Counted from the first letter of the stretch, positions 2,176-9,135 are shown. The stretch: DNA of 64,000 bases from Escherichia coli (GCF_024223415.1 NZ_CP100500.1); one strand, 5' to 3'. Notes: generated by a model from the sequence alone, not told the origin. Numbers and translations are program-made.

Positions 2176-3336
2176 ATGGACGAAAAGAAACTTAAAGTCC
2201 TTGCGGCTGAACTGGCCAAAGGCCTTAAAACCGAAGCCGACCTCAACCAGTTTTCACGCATGTTGACAAAGCTTACCGTCGAAACGGCGCTCAATGCAGA
2301 ACTGACTGACCATCTAGGTCATGAGAAAAATGCTCCTAAATCAGGCTCTAATACCCGTAATGGCTACTCGTCAAAAACGGTATTGTGCGATGATGGCGAG
2401 ATCGAACTTAACACGCCGCGTGACCGTGAAAATACCTTCGAACCACAACTGGTGAAGAAAAATCAGACCCGCATTACCGGCATGGACAACCAGATCCTGG
2501 CGCTGTATGCCAGAGGGATGACTACCCGCGAAATTACCTCAGCCTTCAAAGAAATGTACGACGCCGATGTCTCGCCCACGCTGATATCCAAAGTGACCGA
2601 TGCGGTTAAAGAACAGGTCTCTGAATGGCAAAACCGACCGTTGGATGCACTGTATCCCATTGTTTATCTTGACTGTATTGTGGTTAAGGTTCGTCACAGC
2701 GGGAGTGTCATTAACAAAGCGGTGTTCCTCGCGCTGGGCATCAATACCGACGGTCAGAAAGAGCTGCTGGATATGTGGCTGGCCGAAAATGAAGGTGCAA
2801 AGTTCTGGCTGAATGTACTGACGGAACTGAAAAATCGCGGCCTGAACGATATCCTTATCGCCTTCGTGGACGGCCTGAAAGGCTTCCCGGAAGCGATAAA
2901 TAGCGTGTACCCGCAGACGCATATTCAGCTCTGCATCATCCATATGGTGCGCAACAGCCTGAAATTCGTGTCGTGGAAGGATTACAAAGCCGTCACCAGC
3001 GGGCTGAAAGCGGTATATCAGGCCCCGACAGAGGAAGCGGCGTTGATGGCGTTGGATAAGTTTGCAGGCGTCTGGGATGAAAAATACCCGCAAATCAGCA
3101 AGAGCTGGCGCACACACTGGGAAAATCTCAACACCTTCTTCGGTTACCCACCGGATATCCGCAAGGCCATCTACACGACGAATGCCATCGAATCGCTGAA
3201 CAGTGTCATTCGGCAGGCGATAAAGAAGCGCAAGGTGTTCCCAACGGACGACTCGGTGCGAAAAGTGATTTATCTGGCGATACAGTCGGCGTCAAAAAAT
3301 GGAGTATGCCAATCCAGAACTGGCGGCTGGCAATGA
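2176..3336 (+). CDS. IS256-family transposase with C-terminal frameshift
   Basis: 386-aa ORF with IS256/mutator-type transposase similarity. The frame breaks in an A-run near 3295-3300; the +1 frame continues KKWSMPIQNWRLAMSRFIIEFGDRLSEHL to a stop at 3381-3383, the expected transposase C-terminus. Confidence 0.85.
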   Translation: MDEKKLKVLAAELAKGLKTEADLNQFSRMLTKLTVETALNAELTDHLGHEKNAPKSGSNTRNGYSSKTVLCDDGEIELNTPRDRENTFEPQLVKKNQTRITGMDNQILALYARGMTTREITSAFKEMYDADVSPTLISKVTDAVKEQVSEWQNRPLDALYPIVYLDCIVVKVRHSGSVINKAVFLALGINTDGQKELLDMWLAENEGAKFWLNVLTELKNRGLNDILIAFVDGLKGFPEAINSVYPQTHIQLCIIHMVRNSLKFVSWKDYKAVTSGLKAVYQAPTEEAALMALDKFAGVWDEKYPQISKSWRTHWENLNTFFGYPPDIRKAIYTTNAIESLNSVIRQAIKKRKVFPTDDSVRKVIYLAIQSASKNGVCQSRTGGWQ

Positions 3337-3699
3337 GCCGTTTTATTATCGAGTTCGGTGACCGCCTTAGCGAGCACCTTTAATACGGCGGCAGTTACAC
3401 AGAATTATTTACAGGGTCATTCTGAATTCAGTGCAGAATTAAAACATGTGTGCAAAATAATTTAATTCAGACAGATTTTTATTTCACTATGGCTATCCCA
3501 GAACAATCAGTACAAATAATAAAAGACATATCACAGCAACACTCCACACTGACAGCGCAAAAATAAATGCCGCCTTTGTTATCTTCATATACAAGCAACC
3601 TGTCCTGATAATCACCAACTCATGTTTTATTCTTAACCATTCGTCACAAATACAACAAAAAATAACAGCAGCAGCACCGATATCACAATATAAGATACA

Positions 3700-4155
3700 T
3701 TATTCAACACCTGAATCCCCCGCAGCTTCTCTCCCCTTTATAAAACGCCCCTTCCGGAATCCAGACCGCTGCAGTGCACGACGAAGATGACCGTATACCG
3801 TCTTGTCATTCTGCCCCGTCTCTTCTGTAATCTCCGCAATACTTAAACCTCTGTAATACCGGTTCAGTACCGCTCTGCGCTCTTCCAGCGTCAACACACC
3901 TCCGGCCGCTCTCAGATTCAGCATCGACTTATTCAGAATACAGCAGGCCTCTCCGGTAAAAAGAATACGAACAATATCTGTATACTCATCATCACAGAAT
4001 ACAAAATAATATCTGAATGACCTGCCTGACTGCACCCTTCTTCTGTCTGATATGGCATCTTCTATATATCTGATTCGACTGCTTACGGTTCCAAATATCT
4101 CTCGCAGGGCTTTTTCAAAATAAATATCTCTCGTCGCCAGGATTATATCCAGCAT
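3700..4155 (-). CDS. small HTH protein with sigma-70 region-4-like C-terminus
   Basis: 151-aa ORF directly downstream of the adhesin on the same strand; C-terminal LTLEERRAVLNRYYRGLSIAEITEETGQNDKTVYGHLRRAL resembles a sigma-70 region 4 / LuxR-type HTH. Family unassigned. Confidence 0.5.
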   Translation of the reverse strand: MLDIILATRDIYFEKALREIFGTVSSRIRYIEDAISDRRRVQSGRSFRYYFVFCDDEYTDIVRILFTGEACCILNKSMLNLRAAGGVLTLEERRAVLNRYYRGLSIAEITEETGQNDKTVYGHLRRALQRSGFRKGRFIKGREAAGDSGVE

Positions 4156-4215
4156 CTCTGTACCTCATTATATCCCGGGGGACTCCCCCGGGACAGATAT
4201 CTAAATCCTGACCTG

Positions 4216-5358
4216 TCAGAACTCAAAATTCACACCAGCATTCCACGATGCGGATGACCCACCTGCAGCAACTGCAACTTTTCCTGCCACATTCTCTGTG
4301 AAACGGTAGCCCACGCCCACCGCAATGGCCTGCTCATCACGGTAACCACCAACGGCTGCTGTCGCGTTAAATTTTCCAACACTGTATGGCTGGAAAAGAC
4401 CGGCCAGTGCCGCGCTCTGGGCTGCACTCTCCCTTAACTCCTTCCGGTTCTCTTTAATCTGCTCCTGCATATTATTCATTCTCTCTGTCGCCATCTTCTG
4501 CCAGGCTTCCGTCAAATCCAGACGATGACTGTTATTCCTTATCGCTGCTGTATTTGAGGCTATTGCTGCATCCGTCTGCGCCCTGTTCTTCACAAGCACA
4601 TCGCTGAGATGTTCTGCCTGGCTTTTCGCTTCTTTACGGACATCCCGTACACTTTTATCTGTATAAGCCCGGGAAACCTGAACTGTTTCATCCGCTTTTT
4701 CTTTTATTTCATCCTGAAGAGCAAGAGAAGATGCATCCGTATACGCCACCGCTGCCGATGTGCCTGCAATAATATCCCTGCTGAGTTCATCACGTACTGC
4801 TGTAACCTGACTGTCAGTATGAGCACGGGCATCTCTGTATACACCACCTATCTCACCACGCAGACTGTCTCCCGACACCCGTACAGCATCTGCAATGGCG
4901 TTGTCCATCTGTCCTTTTGTGGCCGCATCACTATCCTTAACACCATCTGAAACATTTATAATCCGGCGGGTTTCCGGTGCACCATCAACTGAAACTCCAT
5001 ATCCTGAAGGACCGGCCCCTACAGAAAGTACATTGTTTTCTCCATTCACCTGAGAGCCATACCCCAGAGCGACACTGTTGTCTGCATTAAAAACAGCTGT
5101 CTTATTTCCCACTGCCATGGATTTATCCGCATCCAGAATTGCTGCACCACTACCTACGGCAAAATTATATCCTGTATCATTTAGTTGACGGTCAATCACA
5201 GCTACTTTTTCAACTGACTGACCGCCACCATCAATCCAGATAATACCCGCCGATGACTCAGTAAGTGTTTTATGAGCCAAAGCCTGAGATGAGAGCAGCA
5301 GGGCCACACTCACTGCCAGCGCGCTTTTCTTTAAAAAAGCATCACGTCTTTTAAGCAT
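4216..5358 (-). CDS. YadA-like trimeric autotransporter adhesin (Eib/YadA type)
   Basis: Start taken at the internal Met (MLKRRD...) followed by a signal-peptide-like stretch; repetitive head/stalk motifs, coiled-coil-like region, and C-terminal beta-barrel anchor ending ...[16 protein letters not shown]. Confidence 0.75.
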
Positions 5359-5844
5359 TCTGTTATTCTCCTGTATTATTACTTCACCAGCCAGAACGGT
5401 AGTGCGGAGCAAAAATACAGTGATAAGAATCCTCTTTTATTAATTTAATAATGCCAGGAATATTATTGTGTATAATATGCGCCCTCAATTTAAGCAGCAG
5501 AAAAGCAATGACGCGAAAATCATTAAAATACATACAGATAAAACATCATAACTATAATTATAATAAGCGCGCTTATTTTAGCATCTGAACATTTAAAGTA
5601 CTGCTATCACAAAACAATAAAAATCCTGGTTAATATCTCTGATGATTGAATGAGAAATTCACGATGTCTGGTGAGAATTCTGTTCAAAACGAGGAATGCA
5701 GACGTACACGTGGCAGGTATGGACTTCCACCGATTTAACTTTTTTCCTTCCTTGTATTTACACATCACACATTTTGCGCTACAAAAATTTCACGTGGCAC
5801 GCACCACGTGATCCGTAGAAAAGCCTCTTGTTACGAATTTCGTA

Positions 5845-5879
5845 AACCGCACGTCTGTCTGGTCGTGCGGATTTTTTAT
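5845..5879 (+). terminator. intrinsic-terminator-like hairpin
   Basis: Stem ccgcacg/cgtgcgg with a 10-nt loop, followed by attttttat; no plus-strand ORF of 60 aa or more upstream. Confidence 0.4.
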
Positions 5880-6072
5880 CCGTCAACTTCACATGAAACC
5901 CGCCAGAGCACTGTTTCCGGATTCAGACATCAGGCATATTATCATCCACGATGTCGTGAACAAGATCACACTTTTGCAATTCCTTTATTGATCGAAAGCA
6001 GTTAATCACGGAAATTAATTACCGGAGTGAAAGCATTACTGCATCGTAAATATCTACCATTTTTGACTACAC

Positions 6073-6101
6073 CCTCTGACAGAATTTTCAGAGGGTTTTT
6101 T
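6073..6101 (+). terminator. intrinsic-terminator-like hairpin
   Basis: Perfect 8-bp stem ccctctga/tcagaggg with a 7-nt loop, followed by tttttt. Confidence 0.5.
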
Positions 6102-6185
6102 ATCAGTTTCACCATCCAACCCTGTACGCCAGAATGGTTTCACTGTCACTCAGTTCTGCTATTGCCTTTTTCATCTCCCTTTACC

Positions 6186-6400
6186 TTACGTTCTGCCAGA
6201 GTCTGAGCCATTTGAACAGGAGGTTATCATTGATATCGTGTTCCCGGGCAATACGGGCAACAGAGGCTCCTGGTTGCAAAGCCAGTTTAACCATTTGAAG
6301 TTTAACTCATTTGAAAATGATCTGCGGGGTTCTGCGGATAATGTTTTTGCTCCATAACAGGCGCCCACCAGTTTGAAAAGGTGGGCACCTACGTTACCAA
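6186..6400 (-). pseudogene. IS3-family orfA-like remnant (frameshifted)
   Basis: Minus-strand frames encode ...RRSFSNELNFKW... and MVKLALQPGASVARIAREHDINDNLLFKW..., resembling the HTH region of IS2/IS3-type OrfA; split across frames. Confidence 0.4.
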
Positions 6401-6556
6401 TACTGGCTTAATGGATACATACGGCGGTCGGTTCTTACGGTAAAACGACACAACCAAACGCTTCTTATCCTGCAATGAACTGCTTTATTACCGAGTTTAG
6501 TGACCGCACAGACACTCACTTTTAAGAAAAACAGAATGGTAAACAAACTCCATGAA

Positions 6557-6745
6557 TTACAATAGCTCTCTGGCTGCCGCCACAATAGCTTGCGCGGTTA
6601 ACCCGTACTCTCTCTGTAAAAAGTCCTGAGTTTCAACCTGGCCATACCGCTCTTTAACCCCCACCCGACGCATGGGCACAGGACAAGTTTCTACAAGCAC
6701 TTCAGCAACTGCTGAACCTAATCCATTATGAATACGGTAATGACT
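6557..6745 (-). pseudogene. 3' fragment of a transketolase-like (TPP enzyme) C-terminal-subunit gene, truncated at the IS1 end
   Basis: Minus-strand translation ...HNGLGSAVAEVLVETCPVPMRRVGVKERYGQVETQDFLQREYGLTAQAIVAAARELL then stop (6557-6559); the frame runs straight into the IS1-like inverted repeat at 6745. Confidence 0.5.
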
Positions 6746-6812
6746 CCAATTAGTTGAATTAGGAGTATAATAGCCACTTTTAAGGTTCTTTCATGGTCAC
6801 AGTTAACCTTCA

Positions 6813-7064
6813 TTGCTCCTGTTGCCAGTCCGTTCAGGTTTACCGTCACGGGAAGAACCCAAAGGACATGATCGATTTCGCTGCCGTGACTGTCATCGAG
6901 TGCTTCAGCTCACTTACCGTTACGAGGCCCGTAAACCGGGAGTTAAAGAGCAAATCACTGAAATGGCTTTCAACGGTGCCGGAGTTCGCGATACTGCCCG
7001 TACGCTGAAAATCGGCATTAATACTGTCATCCGGACTTTAAAAAACTCTCGCCACGAAGAATAA
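6813..7064 (+). CDS. insA: IS1-family InsA-like protein
   Basis: 83-aa ORF with Cys-rich N-terminus (CRDCHRVLQL) and InsA-like HTH (ITEMAFNGAGVRDTARTLKIGINTVIRTLKNS); divergent from canonical IS1 InsA. Confidence 0.7.
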   Translation: MLLLPVRSGLPSREEPKGHDRFRCRDCHRVLQLTYRYEARKPGVKEQITEMAFNGAGVRDTARTLKIGINTVIRTLKNSRHEE

Positions 7065-7082
7065 CGTCATACCCGGTCGCTC

Positions 7083-7377
7083 ATGCTGATATGGCACTCA
7101 TCTGCGAACTTGATGAGCAATGGAGTTTTGTCGGCAGTAAAGCGCGACAGCACTGGCTCTGGTACACGTACAACACGAAAACTGGTGGCGTTCTGGCCTA
7201 CACTTTTGGCCTACGGACTGATTAAACCTGTCGTGAATTGCTGGCGCTGCTTGCCCTTTTACCATCGGTATGTTGACCACTGACGAATGGGGTAGTTACA
7301 CCAGAGAGTTACCGAAGGAGAAGCATCTGACTGGTAAGATTTTTACTCAGCGCATTGAGCGCAACATCTACCTCTGA
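7083..7377 (+). pseudogene. insB: IS1-family InsB-like transposase, interrupted
   Basis: Pieces ...DEQWSFVGSKARQHWLWYTYNTKTGGVLAYTFG... and ...DEWGSYTRELPKEKHLTGKIFTQRIERN... match InsB but lie in different frames with stops. Confidence 0.6.
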
Positions 7378-8019
7378 GAACCCGAATCAAACGTCTGGCC
7401 CGCAGAACTATCTGTTTCTCGCGCTCTGTAGAACTTCATGAAAAAGTCATCGGTGCCTTTATCGAAAAATATATGTTCTACTAATTGGAGTCACCACCTT
7501 CGTTTGTTTAAAGAACCTGCTGGTCCTGCCATTAATATTACCTGCTGATTGCTTCACATCCGGATTCCTCGCACTGCGCGCGGGTTATTGTTTCGTTTTC
7601 GGCCACGGGGTCGCCAGGGCTCTGTTTGCAGGCCATGATGGCCTGACCTGTACTGTTTCTCAGGCACTGAGATGTCCGTTTACGCCATTTGTTCCCTGCC
7701 CCTCTGTCTGATAACGAATACGCTCACAACGCACAGTACTGAACAATACCGACAACAACATGTCTTACATGAAATTCGCTGTAACATCCACCGGAAAACA
7801 TTTTCAGATATCGGATGAGGTACTACTTCCATTGACAGCGCGAGGTAACAAAATTGATGGTAACTCTGACCATTAACCGTAAACCGCAGGGTATTTTCAG
7901 TAAATCACCGGCAACGCCGCTGCAGGATAAAACGGACACAGCATACAAAATGAAGGCCGGTGACCAGATACCACAGTTGAACGATAAACAGAAACCTGCT
8001 GATAAAACACCGTGGCGAC

Positions 8020-8365
8020 ATGACAAAACGCCAGAGCAAAAACCGTAAGCGCATTATTCGTCTTGTGGAACTCTGGCCTGAGTCATTCAACCGGGAAAAA
8101 AACAAAACCACTTAAAGTGGGGATACCTGACGACCTGATACAGGATATCGCCATCCGAGAACTGGCGTTTGGCGCTGGTACATTACATGCAGCAGTGGCG
8201 TCTTATGTGCAGTCTCCGCGCTATTACCGTGCGTTAATAGCAGGTGGCGCCCGTTACAACCTGAACGGTCAGCCGTGCGGGGAAGTGACACCACAGGAAC
8301 AGAAAGAGGCAGAGACCCGTTTAATGATGCTGAATGACCGACGAAAAGACAGAAAACCTCGTTGA
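8020..8365 (+). CDS. FinO/ProQ-domain RNA-binding protein, frameshifted in an A7 run
   Basis: Frame from ATG 8020 gives MTKRQSKNRKRIIRLVELWPESFNREK then a stop; the next frame continues KPLKVGIPDDLIQDIAIRELAFGAGTLHAAVASYVQSPRYYRALIAGGARYNLNGQPCGEVTPQEQKEAE, matching the ProQ N-terminal/FinO domain signature. The frames join if the A7 run at 8096-8102 is A6. Confidence 0.6.
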
Positions 8366-8382
8366 CTGCACAACAGCGCTGT

Positions 8383-9135
8383 TCACTGAGCTGTAATCAA
8401 TGTACAGCGCTGTACCGGGCGATGGGTAATACCGGTCACAACCGGTAACCCCAGAGACAATGCAACTGTTTTTAACGCAATATACTGGCCGGATGTATCA
8501 CCCCGGGCAGCCTGAAAACACCTTTCCACCCGGCATTGTCCGTCAGCACTTATCACCCGCCATGTCTGTTGCAATAAATCCACCCGTTGCGAACATTCTT
8601 CATCAACCGTGGCACTGACCCGTGGATGGCAAATGCTCGTCTGGCTGAGCAGCAACAGGCATCGCATTGTTGCTCCTCCATGTTGTTCCCGCAACCAGCG
8701 TAATACCACCGGTGGTGCTGGACTGGCCGTGTGATTACGTTCAGTAATACGCTCGTGCACCTGTCGGTAAAAGGAAGTACAGAATGCATGAATCTGTTGT
8801 CCGTTGATGTTTCCTTCTGCCGAATGGAGTGTGAAGTGGACGGCCAGCAGACGCGGCCAGTGATCCACCGCCTGCTGAATAAAACGCCGGATTTCCACCG
8901 GCTCTGAAAGTACGGTTTCGGTTATTTGCACGATTTGATCCCCTTGAATGTTGCTGAACCGGTGTCGGTACGCAGGAAAGCACGCCGAGACCGGTACGAT
9001 GCCTGTTACAGCGAAGAACGAGGAATGACAGACGGGGGCAGCAGGTCGCCAGCACCAGGGACAGGGCTGATTTCCACAATACCAACGCTGGTATTTTGCA
9101 CATTGCCAGCGTACCGGCATTACAACACGTTTCAT
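8383..9135 (-). CDS. Gp2-family (YagK/YfjJ-like) island protein, third paralog, possibly degenerate
   Basis: Shares a motif pattern with the two upstream paralogs (LLAVHFTLHS..., VLRWLREQHGG...MRCLLLLS). Start uncertain; the Met at 9135 would overlap the alpA stop in an ATGA arrangement. The N-terminal region is low-complexity. Confidence 0.45.
   Translation of the reverse strand: MKRVVMPVRWQCAKYQRWYCGNQPCPWCWRPAAPVCHSSFFAVTGIVPVSACFPAYRHRFSNIQGDQIVQITETVLSEPVEIRRFIQQAVDHWPRLLAVHFTLHSAEGNINGQQIHAFCTSFYRQVHERITERNHTASPAPPVVLRWLREQHGGATMRCLLLLSQTSICHPRVSATVDEECSQRVDLLQQTWRVISADGQCRVERCFQAARGDTSGQYIALKTVALSLGLPVVTGITHRPVQRCTLITAQ

Follow-up and report, generated by a model that had tools for sequence, protein, structure and literature searches.

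Genomic setting of the spacer

The 64,000-nucleotide (nt) stretch of Escherichia coli DNA analysed here (GCF_024223415.1, NZ_CP100500.1; hereafter the window) is part of a genomic island of extraintestinal and avian pathogenic E. coli (ExPEC and APEC) adjoining the aerobactin genes. A preliminary description of the window had pointed out two plus-strand hairpins ending in T-runs, at 5845-5879 and 6073-6101, with no plus-strand gene upstream. Both were borne out (hairpins 1 and 2, Table 1), and stems and T6 runs could be read directly. The absence of an upstream plus-strand gene also held, but a decayed minus-strand gene (6109 to about 6186) adjoins hairpin 2. The minus-strand order of the arrangement is tail fibre, orf-191, a spacer (about 750 bp of non-coding DNA), a YadA/Eib-like adhesin gene and an ORF-156-like gene. 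The locus is the stump of an Eib-type lambdoid prophage, cut by an insertion sequence (IS) of the IS66 family.

The prophage origin was displayed by copies in which the cut had not occurred. A 24-mer from the conserved core of the spacer was found in 27 metagenome contigs. Two of these, L020 and L027, lack the IS66 junction, and the spacer there runs on into an intact minus-strand gene of 191 amino acids (aa), whose last 21 codons correspond to the small open reading frame (ORF) at 6109..6174 of the window. The intact protein matched Pfam DUF4376 (1.5e-20), was preceded by a tail fibre (phage_tail_N with collagen repeats), and was 56-59% identical to ORF-191A/C/D/E of the Eib prophages (59% to ORF-191D). 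The same uncut arrangement, free of the IS66 fragment, was present inside a lambdoid prophage in 21 complete E. coli genomes; in NRZ14408 it follows the tape-measure, J, Lom and tail-fibre genes of that prophage. The IS66 junction was identical in the nine aligned alleles described below, and at least 80% of the junction-spanning segment 6040-6460 was covered in 366 genomes.

Table 1. Positions of the hairpins, variable patches, genes and candidate promoters of the locus
Feature	Coordinates	Strand	Remarks
Hairpin 1 (T+1)	5847..5877	+	Antisense-facing intrinsic-terminator motif; 7-bp G+C-rich stem, 10-nt loop, A, T6
Hairpin 2 (T+2)	6071..6102	+	9-bp stem, 8-nt loop, T6
Third terminator-like hairpin (T-)	5781..5811	-	Stem 5811-5790, tail to 5781
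Variable patch 1	5504..5604		36 differences per 100 columns, no indels; flanks 99-100% identical
Variable patch 2	6038..6072		Directly 5' of hairpin 2; short and long allele, 26-nt indel
End of orf-191-type tail-fibre-assembly gene (DUF4376)	6109..6186	-	Last ~25 codons, ending in REMKKAIAELSDSETILAYRVGW and stop; cut by the IS66 fragment
IS66-family fragment	6184..6433	-	One IS end and part of tnpA; severed the prophage tail module
YadA-like/Eib-like trimeric autotransporter adhesin	4216..5358	-	380 aa; 'moron' downstream of the spacer
Adhesin promoter-like site, best-scoring	5460..5488	-	TTGAGG-17-TAATAT; predicted start near 5453; weak
Adhesin second candidate promoter	5589..5560	-	TTCAGA-18-TATTAT
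151-aa protein	3700..4155	-	Sigma-70 region-4 helix-turn-helix (Pfam 2.2e-7, below NCBIfam cut-offs); ORF-156 position

Structure of the hairpins and excess over chance

Hairpins 1 and 2 are good motifs for predicted Rho-independent (intrinsic) termination on the plus strand. The arms of hairpin 1, CCGCACG (5847-5853) and CGTGCGG (5864-5870), are followed by an A and TTTTTT (5872-5877), and those of hairpin 2, ACCCTCTGA (6071-6079) and TCAGAGGGT (6088-6096), by T6 on the plus strand (6097-6102). No U tract follows either stem on the minus strand. Folding energies were -14.3 kcal/mol for hairpin 1, against -8.75 +/- 2.39 in dinucleotide shuffles (z -2.3), and -14.7 kcal/mol for hairpin 2, against -7.16 +/- 2.29 (z -3.3), a value equalled by one of 200 shuffles. 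Hairpin 1 is located about 230-260 nt past the stop codon of the cut tail-fibre-assembly gene (tfa, orf-191). Hairpin 2 is close to this stop codon (6111..6109, minus strand), with the end of its T-run 6 nt away.

A strict terminator criterion (single hairpin of -12 kcal/mol or below, 6 or more T among the 7 bases that follow) retained 12 sites in the entire window on both strands; the background was about 1e-4 strict sites per base per strand. Three of the 12 were inside the 825-bp spacer (5359-6183). Other strict sites that were checked against the ORF list (23963, 26132/26168 and 58604) marked 3' ends of large ORFs. That the spacer hairpins arose by chance in non-coding DNA is hardly credible. 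The simple tool scan is indeed rich in false positives, with 11 hairpin sites in a 6-kb region for 5.0 +/- 2.3 expected, but under the strict criterion the three sites compare with none in 295 of 300 dinucleotide shuffles of the spacer and a single site in the other five. The conservation of the sites, their compensated changes and their recurrent position in related phages, described below, also count against chance.

Distribution and content of the spacer

At near and distant sensitivity (megablast and blastn), segment 5420-6130 was found at one locus only, in 371 of 5426 complete E. coli genomes (about 7%), and was never annotated. Carriers were mostly avian, extraintestinal and multiresistant lineages. 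An origin as a dispersed repeat or an IS end, which by the preliminary description would refute its proposal of short transcripts, was ruled out, as was a repetitive extragenic palindrome, the segment being single-copy and island-specific. Extra matches of a longer query were traced to the IS66-family fragment, with a sharp edge of homology at about 6184, 80 bp past hairpin 2, and alignment to an intact IS66 element ruled out that hairpin 2 is part of it. The spacer matched no phage nucleotide sequence, and its one plasmid match was a plasmid carrying a captured piece of the island. No Rfam family was found in window 3000-9000 at E values up to 1. The hairpin 1 pattern gave only five chance matches among species representatives (Bacteroidaceae, Prevotella, Clostridia and Oscillospiraceae).

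No coding capacity was detected. The six-frame translation of 5420-6190 had no match among 5.8 billion proteins, and no ATG-initiated ORF in the spacer had a good Shine-Dalgarno sequence or a credible start. The 47-codon ORF that had been proposed near 5508 was misread: ATG 5508 is an internal methionine of a 45-codon ORF (5451..5588), of which 26 codons remain from that point. The start codon of this ORF was ATA in strain SMS-3-5. Against a small-protein gene or a type I toxin-antitoxin system stand the lack of a good ribosome-binding site, the ATA in place of ATG 5451, and the lack of any homolog or Rfam match.

Plus-strand sigma-70 promoters were absent from the spacer at the tool threshold. 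In a weight-matrix scan, the best plus-strand site (TTTCCG-17-TATTAT, 5914-5942) scored 8.2 bits and the maximum anywhere in the window spacer was 8.6 bits. The TATAAT hexamer at 5471-5476, taken up in the preliminary description, is present; it scored 5.6 bits with ATAATG as its best -35 element. Since the local DNA is AT-rich (31% G+C), contains further TATAAT hexamers at 5553 and 5559, and offers only this poor -35, the hexamer is not evidence of a promoter.

One plus-strand frame (5646-6206) was unusually open: its 186 codons include only 2 stops, for which block shuffles gave a post hoc p of about 0.02. It crosses both terminator motifs into IS66 DNA, has no homolog, and gives a Cys/His/Arg-rich translation implausible as a protein; as a gene it was judged a chance occurrence. 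The frame bears on the idea that the hairpins are leftovers of plus-strand genes or morons deleted from the spacer and functionless now, an idea that is also in line with the convergent gene after tfa in lambda and with the moron model, in which, as cited in PMC4104026, each inserted unit brings its own terminator. We hold such leftovers to be unlikely. Besides the features of the open frame and the missing protein matches, both stems are without mismatch, whereas nothing of a former coding sequence can be recognised, and the changes in hairpin 2 are compensated.

Allelic variation around the hairpins

Nine diverse alleles aligned over 5300-6450 were 99-100% identical across most of this region, save two patches (Table 1). 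Hairpin 1 was invariant. Hairpin 2 occurred in three allelic versions, all with a strong stem (-14.7 to -18.6 kcal/mol) followed by 6-7 T; one version has a C-G pair in place of the basal A-T pair, and another has an added C on the 5' arm paired by an added G on the 3' arm. Immediately upstream of hairpin 2 the alleles were heavily diverged over 35-60 nt, and the preservation of the hairpin beside such DNA argues for selection on its structure.

Patch 1 comprises two old alleles, separated by 19 transitions and 17 transversions. By our own count these differences fell 13/13/10 over the codon positions, a spread that shows the patch not to be coding. It sits in the promoter and upstream region of the adhesin gene and retains TTATAATAA, a minus-strand TATTAT -10 motif. 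No conserved RNA structure was found in it on either strand. Inversion and a diversity-generating retroelement were ruled out as its source, the alleles being collinear and free of adenine bias. Outside its indel, patch 2 was about 65% identical between alleles, and one recombinant was found besides the short and long alleles. All four combinations of patch 1 and patch 2 alleles exist. No other source locus for the patches was found in E. coli, queries with allele B and the long allele returning the same 371 genomes. The patches may originate from swapping of regulatory regions or from diversifying selection on the adhesin control region.

Antisense terminators in related phages

The strict scan was extended to ten loci, in each of which it covered the DNA between the orf-191 stop and the adhesin start. 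A terminator motif in antisense orientation, its T-run 6-14 nt from the orf-191 stop, was present in five of six spacer types: +14 in the window and L027, +6 in P-EibA, PhiR5_2 and PhiR12_5, +9 in GER2 and +10 in phiSTEC1589. P-EibC, P-EibD and PhiR12_3 displayed a weaker antisense terminator at the same place. Only Rac-SA53, where the gene is at the prophage end, had none. The stems at the orf-191 stop were five unrelated sequences, and the window spacer had no nucleotide similarity to those of the Eib phages. With a background of strict sites this low, the positional recurrence at the orf-191 stop cannot be chance. Further antisense terminators were found at +134 and +303 in PhiR5_2, +134 in PhiR12_5, +262 in phiSTEC1589 and +267 in the window (hairpin 1). 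An antisense terminator against the orf-191 stop, often with more in tandem, appears to be an unrecorded feature of this phage group.

The recurrence at one position in five unrelated spacer types points to retention by selection, which again runs counter to leftovers of deleted genes. It also bears on a role of the hairpins on the minus (sense) strand, as 3' stem-loops stabilising the tail mRNA or as protein-binding palindromes with incidental T-runs. Hairpin 2 does begin 12 nt past the minus-strand stop codon, and folds better on that strand (-17.2 kcal/mol, z -4.9), but the minus-strand stems are followed by UGUAGUC and UUUACGA, with no U tract, and the run of six or seven A before the hairpin is retained throughout the related phages, different as their stems are, although a stabiliser would need none. 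We consider a sense-strand role very unlikely.

In PhiR5_2 (L050, 4083-4640) and P-EibA (L049, 3237-3660), units of about 170 nt are repeated in tandem. Every unit combines the motif AT(A/G)CAGAATTTTCGTA with an antisense terminator (GGGGAGC...GCTCCCC and T6), and two of the antisense terminators of PhiR5_2 belong to such units. A hairpin of this type is found again past orf-60, on the far side of the eib cassette. Annotated 49-aa ORFs in these stretches look spurious, one spanning a terminator and neither being protein-like. The units may be unannotated phage RNAs.

Function of the hairpins

We give a probability of about 0.55, slightly better than even, to the reading that hairpins 1 and 2 are backward-facing Rho-independent terminators at the distal end of the decayed tail-fibre-assembly gene, guarding the tail genes. 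A polymerase moving on the plus strand, whether it started in the control region of the adhesin gene or left of it, would copy a G+C-rich stem and then U6 and would be released. Hairpin 1 would act first; hairpin 2 abuts the stop codon of the assembly gene. Convergent transcription would, in the intact phage, be kept out of the late (tail) operon. In lambda, ea47, the gene after tfa, is convergent, and leftward transcription thus normally ends at the tfa junction. In this island, where IS66 removed the operon, the terminators would be relics, ending at most short non-coding plus-strand transcripts. The fossil terminators that the preliminary description had offered as its alternative come nearer to this reading, with the difference that they would lie antisense to a decayed minus-strand gene and not at the ends of decayed plus-strand genes.

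Several points weigh against tail-operon protection. Termination at the hairpins is deduced from sequence alone. No good plus-strand promoter feeds them, the best candidate being the 8.2-bit site at 5914-5942. In intact phages the adhesin, ORF-156, ORF-60 and eaa genes are all co-directional with the tail genes and offer no evident origin for antisense transcription. Transcription under phage antitermination would read through intrinsic terminators. In the simple scan, the 128-bp gap at the lambda tfa/ea47 junction contained no canonical antisense terminator. Lastly, the architecture shared between spacers could be convergent or inherited.

The hairpins could tentatively be seen, instead, as the 3' ends of one or two short prophage regulatory RNAs, convergent to the tail genes. 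The candidate would extend from about 5949 or about 6035 to 6102 and would combine a variable 5' domain (patch 2) with a conserved terminator, as do the anti-small RNAs (anti-sRNAs) of enterohaemorrhagic E. coli (EHEC). The terminators are orphaned, with no ORF upstream, patch 2 abuts a terminator of conserved structure, a U-rich stretch precedes hairpin 2 and a small additional hairpin precedes hairpin 1, and a weak promoter-like site is present at 5914-5942. The tandem units of PhiR5_2, each pairing a repeated motif with an antisense terminator, and the antisense promoter-like sites in PhiR5_2 and P-EibA agree with such RNAs as well. A precedent exists in lambdoid prophage sRNAs of 51-60 nt with Rho-independent terminators, convergent and at moron sites (PMC4104026).

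On the other side, Rfam gave nothing at E values up to 1 either for window 3000-9000 or for four loci of related phages (L047, L049, L050 and L051), and promoter-like sites across the six spacers were weak and inconsistently placed. RNA duplex prediction, a crude method, gave no significant pairing to the adhesin leader. Candidate transcripts folded little better than shuffles, with a modest z of -2.4 for 5880-6105, -0.65 for 5600-5885 and -1.1 for a third candidate, which is unpersuasive. The short plus-strand transcripts of the preliminary description, while conceivable, find no support in promoters, ORFs, Rfam or protein homology. The broader proposition that the spacer encodes undescribed short RNAs, trans-acting or anti-sRNAs, each ending at an antisense terminator and travelling with the adhesin moron, is doubtful.

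The unannotated 825-bp stretch is explained as the region that controls and bounds an adhesin cassette of phage origin, left stranded in the island by IS66. The antisense terminators would be insulators of the late operon or else would end prophage RNAs that have gone unrecognised. The annotation of prophage ends and the understanding of adhesin moron expression would gain in both cases, and neither would be a major surprise.

Third hairpin, adhesin cassette and neighbouring genes

The third strict site in the spacer was overlooked in the preliminary description and came out of the strict scan. It is a perfect palindrome, TCACGTGG-N6-CCACGTGA (5790-5811), with the minus-strand continuation AAATTTTTGT, co-directional with the tail and adhesin genes and upstream of the adhesin promoter region. 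Such a sense-facing terminator-like palindrome was found in the window spacer and in none of the other spacers compared. Three of the five CACGTGG motifs of the window are located here, at 5707, 5791 and 5804, and two of them build the palindrome, which could be an operator instead of, or besides, a terminator. The candidate operator at 5707-5811 would perhaps be bound by the 151-aa helix-turn-helix protein. Metagenome contig L037 has a deletion between the direct repeats CACGTGGCA (5707 and 5791), which leaves this hairpin devoid of its T-tail.

The adhesin matched YadA_anchor (2.3e-16). Its anchor resembles the C-terminus of EibA (57% identity, E 6e-41), but the similarity is confined to the last 118 residues or so and does not extend to head and stalk. 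A search of the PDB returned no Eib structure. The ortholog in NRZ14408 is named 'immunoglobulin-binding protein' by the annotation pipeline PGAP, and immunoglobulin binding is a putative property of the adhesin. An APEC paper on 'eYadA' concerns an accession different from this adhesin and contains nothing on an upstream RNA.

The adhesin passenger domain (about 4600-5280) was strongly mosaic, with 55-85% identity in head and stalk and large indels, while signal peptide and anchor were about 100% conserved; protein length ranged from 369 to 513 aa. A segment of about 90 bp (4784-4873) was tandemly triplicated in contigs L020 and L046. In other E. coli (L002-L005, L012), the adhesin gene was interrupted after 188 codons by an ISCR2-sul2 module (tet, floR, strAB), IS421 or IS903B. 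Since the adhesin is cut and the spacer retained in many genomes, resistance genes have repeatedly inserted into this prophage relic.

The 151-aa protein encoded at the ORF-156 position may be a regulator of the cassette; the helix-turn-helix was the only domain recognised in it. Its identity to ORF-156(D) was 22% end to end (E 2e-4, in a single pairwise comparison). It was absent from 100,044 species representatives, and in a big protein set it was found only in E. coli (at least 94% identity, mostly 98-100%) and as one Salmonella fragment, whose contig was uninformative.

Two further hairpins inside the IS66 fragment, GCCCACC...GGTGGGC (6361-6390) and ATCTGCGG...CTGCGGAT with a T-rich tail (6320-6339), belong to the IS66 end/leader region and are present in intact IS66 copies. 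At 6394-8100, to the right of IS66, a transketolase-family gene survives as a 3' remnant, an IS1 has decayed, and a gene of the ProQ/FinO family carries a frameshift in many genomes. An earlier state of the island is seen in APEC IMT5155, where the transketolase/PTS (phosphotransferase system) operon beside this IS66 fragment is intact.

Comparison with known systems

One of the closest known systems is that of the prophages P-EibA/C/D/E of E. coli ECOR-9 (GenBank AF151091, AF151674-AF151676), which share the order of tail fibre, ORF-191, spacer, YadA-like adhesin and a protein of about 150 aa. Their spacers are likewise non-coding (360-800 bp), with an antisense-facing terminator motif against the orf-191 stop, and the resemblance extends to ORF-191 and the adhesin membrane anchor, at the identities given above. 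In contrast, the spacers are without nucleotide similarity, the adhesin of the window has a head and stalk unlike those of EibA, and the link to ORF-156 is weak (22%). The stem-loops annotated in the GenBank records of these prophages are others, near the eib promoter and after eib.

In lambda, the distal end of the late tail operon at tfa (orf-194) and ea47 likewise meets leftward transcription. However, lambda tfa is of a different family, a real convergent gene follows it, and the canonical antisense terminator is missing from the gap, as noted. Luk and Szybalski reportedly described clusters of leftward terminators (t'J) halting leftward transcripts into the lambda J region.

The EHEC prophage Hfq-binding sRNAs and anti-sRNAs AgvB, AsxR and EcOnc01-03 (Tree et al. 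2014, PMC4104026) also belong to lambdoid prophages, beside moron sites, and are convergent, with a Rho-independent end and a variable 5' domain joined to a conserved 3' hairpin. Unlike the elements of the window, they are located downstream of PR' near stx-type morons and not at the tail-fibre end (PMC4104026), and no sequence or covariance-model match links them to these elements.

A phage moron is, according to Juhala et al. (2000) as cited in PMC4104026, a unit of promoter, gene and terminator placed between phage genes. The adhesin and the ORF-156-like gene resemble this description as an independent unit that follows the last tail gene and has terminator-like hairpins at its borders. They depart from it in that the classical terminator is co-directional and downstream, whereas hairpins 1 and 2 are upstream of the moron and face the opposite way. 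Taken together, the cassette represents a diverged form of the orf-191/eib/orf-156 arrangement already known, and its hairpins are ordinary intrinsic-terminator motifs.

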